Sequence record: PV523736.1
DNA: 64,000 bases
Origin: Enterococcus phage ZJGS3
Strand: one strand, 5' to 3'
The translations under genes were made by a program, and so were the position numbers. Under the pieces are notes generated by a model. It saw only the letters and a list, made by a program, of their open reading frames with translations, searched no databases and had not been told where the DNA came from. Of the stretch, positions 21,438 through 21,515 are shown in pieces. Numbering within the stretch: position 1 is the first letter of the stretch; each line of letters starts with the position of its first letter.

Positions 21438-21515
21438 GGGACAGTGTGCTTTAACCATTCAGCCACCCGCAGGGGTAACCCGCAGGACGGGATTCGAACC
21501 CGTATACCACTGTCC
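21438..21515 (-). ncRNA. tRNA-like element with permuted arm order closed by an 8-bp stem
   Basis: GGACAGUG ... CACUGUCC closing stem; canonical T-arm ACGGG-TTCGAAU-CCCGU precedes D-arm GCU-GAAUGGUUAA-AGC. A 21-nt CCUGCGGG direct repeat replaces the acceptor stem. Confidence 0.4.

Follow-up and report, generated by a model that had tools for sequence, protein, structure and literature searches.

An unannotated element in the tRNA array of Enterococcus phage ZJGS3

We analysed a 64,000-nucleotide (nt) stretch of Enterococcus phage ZJGS3 (PV523736.1; hereafter the window), a Schiekvirus (Herelleviridae, Brockvirinae). About 30 Schiekvirus genomes, for example EFDG1 and EfV12-phi1, are 95-100% identical to it, and Enterococcus phage ZJGS4 showed 100% identity over the 4 kb compared. 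The window contains a transfer RNA (tRNA) array at 21096-30182 with 24 tRNAs called by ARAGORN, a phage transfer-messenger RNA (tmRNA, 23255-23605) and a ROOL RNA. Within this array, between its upstream neighbour tRNA-Ala (21680-21752) and its downstream neighbour tRNA-Pro (21288-21360), lies the element under study, E3 (21429-21524, 96 nt). E3, the tRNA, tmRNA and ROOL genes and the open reading frames (ORFs) flanking E3 are all on the minus strand. On the same strand, 1.54 kb downstream of E3, lies the gene for a 510-amino-acid (aa) protein with a predicted Ro60 fold (18358-19890); two tRNAs, one ORF and three units resembling Y RNAs intervene. Two of these units, E1 (20133-20246) and E2 (20325-20418), are YrlA-like RNAs directly upstream of the Ro60-like gene (class A), and correspond to what a first-pass annotation of the window had called its Y-like locus.

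Judged from its sequence, E3 encodes a small noncoding RNA, structured and about 96 nt in length, that is predicted to be transcribed from the minus strand as part of the tRNA array. It is unannotated in every record examined, including 30 Enterococcus phage records and Listeria phage P100. A sigma-70 promoter with 12 of 12 consensus positions (TTGACA-16-TATAAT, 21376-21403, minus strand) lies just 3' of E3, marks its downstream boundary and is the predicted driver of tRNA-Pro; immediately upstream of E3 we found no promoter with 10 or more of 12 matches.

E3 is predicted to fold into a tRNA-like structure with a closed acceptor position

The minimum free energy (MFE) fold of E3 comprises an outer stem, an internal loop, an 8-base-pair (bp) stem, a T arm, a closed acceptor-like hairpin, a U8-G9 linker and a D arm. 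Read 5' to 3' on the minus strand, it opens with UAUCCA (21519-21524), which forms the 6-bp outer stem with UGGAUA (21429-21434; 93.9% of alignment cells paired, two of six pairs changed on both sides). The internal loop sets AUA (21516-21518; UUA, UUG, GUA or UU in orthologues) opposite CGAA (21435-21438; CGUAU, UGUAU, GCAA or GUAU in orthologues). Next comes the closing stem, in the position of an anticodon stem, whose 5' strand GGACAGUG (21508-21515) pairs with CACUGUCC (21439-21446). A variable-region equivalent of 4 nt, GUAU (21504-21507), whose last U could form a Levitt pair with A15 of the D loop, leads to the T arm ACGGG-UUCGAAU-CCCGU (21487-21503; 100% paired, three of five pairs changed on both sides), whose two loop-adjacent G-C pairs do not vary, just as in tRNA. 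The acceptor stem is represented by a closed hairpin, CCUGCGGG-UUACC-CCUGCGGG (21466-21486), with 8 bp including a U.G and a G.U pair (four of eight changed on both sides). It is followed by the U8-G9 equivalent UG (21464-21465; UG or UA in all orthologues) and by the D arm (21448-21463; two of four pairs changed on both sides), which can be drawn as GCU-GAAUGGUUAA-AGC or as GCU(G)-AAUGGUUA-(A)AGC and in which we read the equivalents of A14, A15, G18, G19 and A21. A single A (21447) separates the D arm from the closing stem.

In tRNA numbering, E3 thus runs from the 3' strand of the anticodon-position stem through the variable region, T arm and acceptor 3' strand to a cap, and from there through the acceptor 5' strand, U8-R9, D arm and N26 to the 5' strand of the anticodon-position stem. 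The acceptor position carries a stem capped by a 5-nt loop, and the base-by-base parse leaves no anticodon loop. The E3 RNA cannot be aminoacylated because the hairpin closes the acceptor position. E3 was not called by ARAGORN and had no match to the Rfam tRNA model RF00005 at E<=10. The Levitt position is occupied by A15:U48 in the window and in the orthologous loci L085 and L086, by G15:C48 in L002 and by A15 with C48 in L083 and L089.

The first-pass annotation had described the same segments on the minus strand with the T arm before the D arm, and a perfect 8-bp helix at the anticodon-stem position; our parse bears out both the order and the helix (21508-21515 with 21439-21446). The span it gave, 21438-21515, is right at its end and begins one base too far out, the exact limits being 21439-21515. 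The direct repeat that it took for a non-palindromic insert replacing the acceptor stem is itself a stem, as CCUGCGGG pairs antiparallel with its own second copy over 8 bp with two G.U pairs. It had also entertained a tRNA-like structure on the plus strand. There the G.U pairs of the hairpin become C.A mismatches, 19 G.U cells of the family likewise become mismatches, and both the UUCGAAU loop and the GG of the D loop are lost. By energy the two strands fold almost equally well (z = -3.05 for plus and -3.3 for minus, versus shuffles), and the strand was therefore assigned from the G.U pairs, the consensus of the T and D loops and the context.

A strict descriptor requiring a T arm, a perfect-ended closed hairpin, 2 nt, a GG D arm and a closing helix of at least 6 bp was run on both strands of 214 phage loci (1.95 Mb, many of them tRNA-rich) and matched the E3 family alone. 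The E3 arrangement is due to more than chance.

Compensatory changes maintain E3 in divergent phages

To find orthologues, contigs encoding proteins 52-80% identical to the Ro60-like protein of the window were scanned with covariance models. Syntenic copies of E3 are present in six further lineages, L083, L002, L089, L085, L086 and L003, the last two added by a model of the E3 subtype (R2), which scores E3 itself at 102.9 bits (E 3e-27). In L083, L002, L089 and L085 the order is tRNA-Arg, tRNA-Ala, spacer, element, tRNA-Pro and tRNA-Gly. L003 is Listeria phage P100 (Jasinkavirinae), whose copy (125946-126043) stands between tRNA-Arg and tRNA-Gly. An exact-pattern scan of viral contigs returned only the contig of L002 itself, and a looser pattern returned 120 loci, mostly tRNA junctions, only three of which have the Ro60-like protein.

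We aligned six exactly trimmed sequences from four divergent lineages with the register checked by hand (alignment A6). In this alignment 95.6% of the cells are paired and 16 of 31 pairs have changed on both sides. When the partners were slid by 1-3 columns only 34-50% of cells were paired and one to four pairs changed on both sides, and none of 500 shuffles reached the observed values. An alignment of 11 sequences gave 94.8% paired cells and 27 of 30 two-sided pairs, figures that lean towards the model because the sequences were fitted to it. The covariation of the 8-bp closing stem, which the first-pass annotation had proposed as a check, is clear: 97.9% of its cells are paired and five of its eight pairs have changed on both sides, the strands being GGACAGUG/CACUGUCC in the window, GGAAACG/CGUUUCC in L002, GGGAGAGU/ACUCUUCU in L085 and GGGUAGAG/CUCUACCC in L086. 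In the aligned register the closing stem of L089c has 8 bp with a 1-nt bulge and a variable (V) region of 4 nt. The 19 G.U cells of A6 fix the minus strand, and the MFE folds of L003 and L085 reproduced the architecture independently.

Compensatory changes maintain the five helices of E3 in lineages down to 44% protein identity. Among the close Schiekvirus copies, every substitution falls in the V region, the T loop or the hairpin cap, or preserves a pair, and E3 is 95.7-100% conserved in 30 Enterococcus phage isolates. All seven lineages keep the outer stem, the internal loop of 3 nt against 4-5 nt, the closing stem of 7-8 bp and the T and D arms. Constraint is looser on the acceptor-like hairpin, with two mismatches in L002, a 2-nt deletion reducing it to 6 bp plus a bulge in phages iF6 (L091) and Porthos (L093), and no hairpin at all in L086 (4262-4337). 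Since only this hairpin is loosely constrained, the conserved core of E3 is a tRNA elbow on a long interrupted helix. A decayed tRNA gene, which would have undone the first-pass interpretation, is excluded, as all five helices covary between lineages; the covariation indicates instead that E3 is a structured RNA with a function.

The 155-nt spacer between tRNA-Ala and E3 (21525-21679, minus strand) is also conserved, in L002, L083, L085 and L089, and structured: a separate alignment (A8) analysed with RNAalifold gave 36 pairs, 17 of them with compensatory changes. It holds one hairpin with a conserved UUGCAA loop and an invariant hairpin GGUG-AAUURA-CACC, and had no match in Rfam. The spacer is possibly the 5' domain of a longer RNA of about 250 nt in total with E3 as its 3' domain. 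It is not required for retention of E3, because Enterococcus phage EFP01 lacks the spacer yet retains E3.

The neighbouring protein has a predicted Ro60 fold and is paired with Y-like RNAs in many phages

The 510-aa protein matches Pfam DUF2828 and DUF7788 and, weakly, a vWA domain (VWA_2), and belongs to PHROG 850, 'RNA-binding protein'; it has no Pfam TROVE match, and a phmmer search against PDB sequences returned nothing at E<=10. An AlphaFold2 model built from a 25-sequence alignment (pLDDT 90.6, pTM 0.90) predicts the Ro60 arrangement of a HEAT-repeat ring (TROVE) followed by a vWA domain. The top 11 PDB matches of this model in Foldseek are all full-length Ro60, Rsr or TROVE proteins (TM 0.43-0.62, E down to 2.7e-7, about 510-580 columns), among them 9KOP and 9L5Y, the Ro60 of Thermus phage phiLo. 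Mycobacteriophage homologues are 31-34% identical and annotated as 'Ro-like RNA binding protein'. The family is found in 695 phage records (Felix O1-like phages, mycobacteriophages, phages of Listeria, Staphylococcus, Campylobacter and Vibrio, and others) under annotations that range from 'hypothetical' to 'Ro-like RNA binding protein'.

The three units upstream of the gene stand in tandem at 20016-20540 on the minus strand, each after a repeated module of about 65 nt (AUAGUUCCAnCCU...GCCGGAACAUAAAGAAC..ACAGCAA) and each ending in the motif UUCUUGYUACAU. E2 (Rfam YrlA 35.8 bits) has an 8-bp terminal stem, AAGAACGC/GCGUUCUU, as does E1 (45.9 bits; AAGAAUCU/AGAUUCUU), which also carries a V hairpin; in the fold of E1/E2, the terminal stem closes a multiloop that holds the V hairpin and the T, AS (acceptor-stem) and D arms. 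The third unit (20016-20079) is predicted to fold with the terminal stem of the other two (AAGAACC/GGUUCUU) and no tRNA-like domain, and resembles YrlB. The 3' motif UUCUUGYUACAU is common to the gene-proximal units, and most related lineages have one to five copies of it in the 900 nt that precede the Ro60-like gene. This motif and the AAGAAC/GUUCUU stem are the best candidates for a protein-binding site.

We built a covariance model (R1) of the core of T arm, closed hairpin and D arm from seven descriptor-defined modules and searched 80 viral-contig loci retrieved through the Ro60-like protein. Among the best 150 matches, 69 overlap ARAGORN tRNAs and are junction artefacts. The other 81 include 78 in fetched loci, and 74 of these, from 33 loci, are found no more than 1.5 kb upstream of the gene. 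The 140 matches in fetched loci are without exception on the strand of the Ro60-like gene. Since 74 of the 78 free matches sit upstream of the gene, E1 and E2 belong to a widespread pairing of Ro60-like proteins with Y-like RNAs.

In a related locus (L088 8607-13082; Ro60-like protein 52% identical), an RtcB protein of 717 aa and an RNA ligase are encoded just downstream of the Ro60-like gene. This RtcB is long enough to hold an insertion, and the arrangement recalls the bacterial rsr-Y RNA-rtcBA RNA-repair operons.

E3 shares the architecture of YrlA and forms a distinct subtype

YrlA-class Y RNAs carry the T arm before the D arm and have a closed acceptor position (Chen et al. 2014, PMC4201824). 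Like the YrlA RNAs of Salmonella, Mycobacterium smegmatis and mycobacteriophages (PMC4201824), E3 has a stem formed by its ends, followed by a T arm, an AS stem-loop, a 2-nt linker and a D arm; it keeps the nucleotides of tRNA tertiary contacts (U8, A14, R15, G18, G19, A21 and UUCGAAU), lies near a Ro60-fold gene on the same strand and is one of several paralogues in its genome. In an Rfam scan, which the first-pass annotation had suggested, the YrlA model (RF02553) matched E3 over its full length (21425-21525, model positions 1-114) at 28.4 bits with a local E of 1.4e-4, a score below the curated gathering score of 69 bits. In a 10-kb scan covering 21 of the 24 ARAGORN tRNAs, E3 was the only match reported by this model, with no tRNA junction among the results. 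The suggestion that E3 is another Y-RNA-like effector domain is borne out to this extent by the architecture, by the YrlA match, and by the Ro60-fold gene and two stronger YrlA-like RNAs within 1.5 kb.

E3 differs from YrlA in having no V stem-loop (its V region is 4-5 nt), in a continuous closing helix of 7-8 bp instead of 3-4 bp, in lying 1.5-2.9 kb from the protein gene and within a tRNA array, and in having a DUF2828/DUF7788 protein as neighbour, not one recognised by Pfam TROVE. E3 has the YrlA architecture while departing from the class on three of the membership points tested. It is a distinct subtype, unrecognised by the curated YrlA family.

Other known RNAs resemble E3 in part. E1 and E2 share with it the strand, the permuted tRNA-like core and an acceptor-like hairpin closed over 7-8 bp; they differ in the AAGAAC.../...GUUCUU terminal stem, the UUCUUGYUACAU motif, the V hairpin and a closing stem of only 3 bp, and were lost together with the Ro60-like gene in EFP01. 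Thermus phage phiLo likewise combines a Ro60-fold protein, phiRo60, with RNAs, Yrl1 and Yrl2, that have a CGAA-containing bulge between two stems (PMC12135203; PDB 9KOP, 9L5Y). CGAA is the motif reported in Ro60-binding bulges, and a RYPER-like complex with host PNPase has been proposed for phiLo, with recruitment of PNPase observed in vitro (PMC12135203). Yrl1 and Yrl2 are, however, directly upstream of their gene and no tRNA-like domain is described for them (PMC12135203), whereas the CGAA of E3 sits on the 3' strand and varies among orthologues. Yrn1 of Deinococcus radiodurans joins an Rsr-binding stem to a tRNA-like effector bearing a T arm and tethers Rsr to PNPase, but differs from E3 in how its T and D arms are oriented towards the ends and in having its inter-arm stem-loop at another tRNA position (PMC4201824). 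The tRNA-like domain of tmRNA also mimics tRNA with a canonical T arm, but its acceptor end is open and can be aminoacylated, and a true D stem is missing. Circularly permuted tRNA and tmRNA genes place the 3' half before the 5' half, as E3 does, but restore an anticodon loop, which E3 lacks. Y-like RNAs accompanying a phage Ro60 homologue have been described before in mycobacteriophages, CcrColossus, Bacillus phage G and Thermus phage phiLo (PMC4201824, PMC12135203). The AcrIIIA1 'protein-RNA' lead proved unrelated, as it concerns fragmented host tRNAs and tmRNA.

A possible adaptor for the Ro60-like protein and the alternatives

We put at about even the chances that E3 is a Y-RNA-like adaptor working with the Ro60-like protein. 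Binding of E3 by this protein is plausible. The T arm and D arm of E3 would form a tRNA 'elbow', with the long interrupted helix in place of the anticodon arm, giving an adaptor of two modules such as known Y RNAs are. Its stem-loop-stem module would dock a protein, for which the phage Ro60-like protein is the leading candidate, and its elbow may engage a reader of tRNA shape, such as host PNPase as in RYPER complexes, or enzymes that process or modify tRNA. During infection this would redirect RNA decay or surveillance, or block a host defence. An analogous complex recruits PNPase in Deinococcus and Salmonella (PMC4201824), and in phage Bas63 a Ro60-like protein encoded next to a tRNA array counters the Ppl defence system (PMC11482910). 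The shared architecture, strand and neighbourhood speak for this role, as do the layout of two stems around a CGAA-containing bulge, known from the phiLo Yrl RNAs, and the RtcB and RNA ligase genes beside the Ro60-like gene of L088. P100 has no class A motif, and the E3-type element is the sole free-standing permuted module in the 4 kb upstream of its Ro60-like gene.

Several observations weigh against such a role. EFP01 (L215, KY549443.1 110788-115913) has lost about 90% of the Ro60-like gene, of which the final 50 codons remain, together with the three class A units, the spacer, tRNA-Arg/Ala and tRNA-Pro/Gly, and has kept E3 intact; its single stem change, from C-G to U.G, preserves the pair. 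In this genome a transposase gene (locus 1-226) is found some 2.3 kb upstream of E3. Conversely, in L087 and L088 the protein and class A units are present and the 6 kb upstream contain no E3-type element; at the syntenic site of L084, a T arm is all that is left. E3 and the protein are thus separable in both directions, each case being a single genome or contig. E3 also lacks the UUCUUGYUACAU motif and the AAGAAC/GUUCUU terminal stem, as well as the V hairpin, and is not followed by an intrinsic terminator. The YrlA 5' motif GNCGAAN0-1G is absent, the 5' strand reading CUAUCCAAUAGGACAGUG; a CGAAUG is found on the 3' strand (21433-21438), where orthologues have CGUAU, UGUAU, GCAA or GUAU. At E<=1 the YrlA model finds none of the E3 orthologues of L002, L085, L089, L003 and L086, and it detects the class A units of L002, L085, L086 and L089 at 28-46 bits. 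Finally, the orthologous loci were found via the protein, so its co-occurrence with E3 is partly by construction. E3 is thus linked to the Ro60-like protein by circumstantial evidence, and less firmly than the two gene-proximal units are.

It is possible, though clearly less probable than the adaptor role, that E3 is a mimic of the tRNA elbow with no need of the Ro60-like protein and acts as a decoy, sponge or cofactor. Its partner might then be, again tentatively, a WDGH-domain protein or a host factor such as RNase P, the CCA-adding enzyme, TruB or a tRNA-directed defence nuclease. This would fit the flanking deletions of EFP01, which stop at the edges of E3, the occurrence of element and protein apart from each other, and the missing class A motifs together with the five orthologues undetected by the YrlA model. 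The core of elbow and long stem, from which the acceptor-like hairpin can be lost as in L086, points to recognition of the elbow. In L002, L085, L086 and L089, 18-21 nt separate the end of E3 from the start codon of a small gene with a WDGH domain (Pfam PF25311, of unknown function; L002 about 1283, L085 4499-4870, L086 4358-4723, L089 3717-4103). The window, however, has no WDGH homologue, its 122-aa ORF at 22033-22401 being unrelated to WDGH, and 30 Schiekvirus isolates keep E3 in the same way with no WDGH gene in the region, which rules out an obligate 5' leader of that gene. Lacking an anticodon loop, E3 cannot be a decoy for anticodon nucleases, EFP01 is a single genome whose deletions may be recent, and the overall architecture and neighbourhood of E3 remain those of Y RNAs. 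With the same reservation we consider that E3-type elements, from Enterococcus Schiekvirus to P100, might form a separate, undescribed class of phage tRNA-elbow mimic that is not a Ro60 partner. Such an element, with the 150-nt upstream domain in the same RNA, would act alone or with another protein (e.g., WDGH) to capture or block a tRNA-shape reader, possibly as an anti-defence decoy.

That E3 has no function in trans and is a cis-acting processing or stability element of a polycistronic tRNA/mRNA transcript, directing RNase P/RNase Z-type cleavage or blocking exonucleases so that adjoining tRNA and mRNA segments are separated or stabilised, we regard as improbable. Its embedding between tRNA-Ala and tRNA-Pro, with no promoter of 10 or more of 12 matches immediately upstream and no terminator, would suit this role, as would its position directly 5' of a ribosome-binding site and ORF in four lineages. 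RNase P also cleaves the YrlA of M. smegmatis (PMC4201824), whose acceptor-like stem has 7 bp; that of E3 has 7-8 bp. A processing signal would nevertheless have no need of the covarying closing stem, internal loop and outer stem, and the hairpin that RNase P could read is the least constrained part of the element (absent in L086, with the 2-nt deletion in iF6 and Porthos). Because E3 is unchanged across contexts in which the downstream neighbour is a WDGH gene or a promoter with tRNA-Pro and the upstream neighbour is gone in EFP01, a purely cis-acting role is disfavoured. A functionless tRNA remnant, decayed or rearranged, or a fused junction of two tRNAs is very unlikely. The lone T arm of L084 could be read as such a remnant, and junctions do score with permuted-tRNA models, as the 69 artefacts among the best 150 R1 matches illustrate. 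E3, however, overlaps no predicted tRNA, its five helices covary and it is conserved in the 30 isolates; a tRNA-tRNA junction artefact is ruled out by the lack of any ARAGORN overlap and by the strict descriptor, which found nothing but the E3 family in 1.95 Mb. Scarcely credible, finally, is a circularly permuted tRNA gene with its 3' half first, as in Cyanidioschyzon merolae, whose product would mature to a working tRNA, or a tRNA-like structure on the plus strand. The order T arm, acceptor 3' strand, linker, acceptor 5' strand and D arm is that of a permuted gene, and RtcB-type ligases occur in related phages. Yet the joined loop CGAAAUA (8-9 nt in orthologues) offers no U33 and no purine 37, the 'anticodon' stem has 7-8 bp and not 5, and the acceptor hairpin is dispensable in L086, so that loop and stem geometry rule out a permuted tRNA gene; on the plus strand the 19 G.U cells turn into mismatches and the loop consensus is lost.

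With these results, systems of the Ro60/Y-RNA type reach into the Herelleviridae. We found no description of such systems for Herelleviridae or for DUF2828-annotated proteins in the literature searched, no paper linking Schiekvirus with non-coding RNA, and nothing relevant in a search for DUF2828. Permuted tRNA-like RNAs are connected here, in no fewer than 33 independent viral loci, with the large DUF2828/DUF7788 family of 695 phage records. This provides concrete RNA candidates for the idea, raised for Bas63, of Y RNAs hidden in tRNA arrays that work together with a Ro60-like anti-defence protein (PMC11482910). E3 itself defines a subtype that is supported by covariation and missed by curated models. 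EFP01 offers a natural genetic separation of E3 from the Ro60-like gene, so that the need of phage tRNA mimics for Ro60 is directly testable. Schiekvirus and P100-type phages are used or being developed for therapy and food safety, and E3 and its Y-like neighbours are unannotated in the 30 Enterococcus phage records and in P100.

Other features of the tRNA array

A tRNA-like sequence at 20821-20898 (minus strand) scores just below threshold (27.7 against 29 bits); its variable region carries an insertion of 11 nt and its T stem is defective. It is not called by ARAGORN, is kept in EFP01 and may be a pseudo-tRNA or another tRNA mimic. Two further Rfam tRNA matches on the minus strand are silent in ARAGORN, at 25645-25740 (33.3 bits) and 28974-29045 (43.4 bits); the length of the former, 96 nt, points to an insertion or intron. 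The array also contains a 384-aa ORF for an AAA-type ATPase (26494-27648, minus strand), and the array of L086 includes a similar AAA gene (507-1598). The ROOL RNA of the window is full length (29071-29657, minus strand, 260 bits), and in P100 a ROOL-like match below threshold (86 against 99.1 bits; L003 2459-3010) lies between the tRNAs and the Ro60-like gene.

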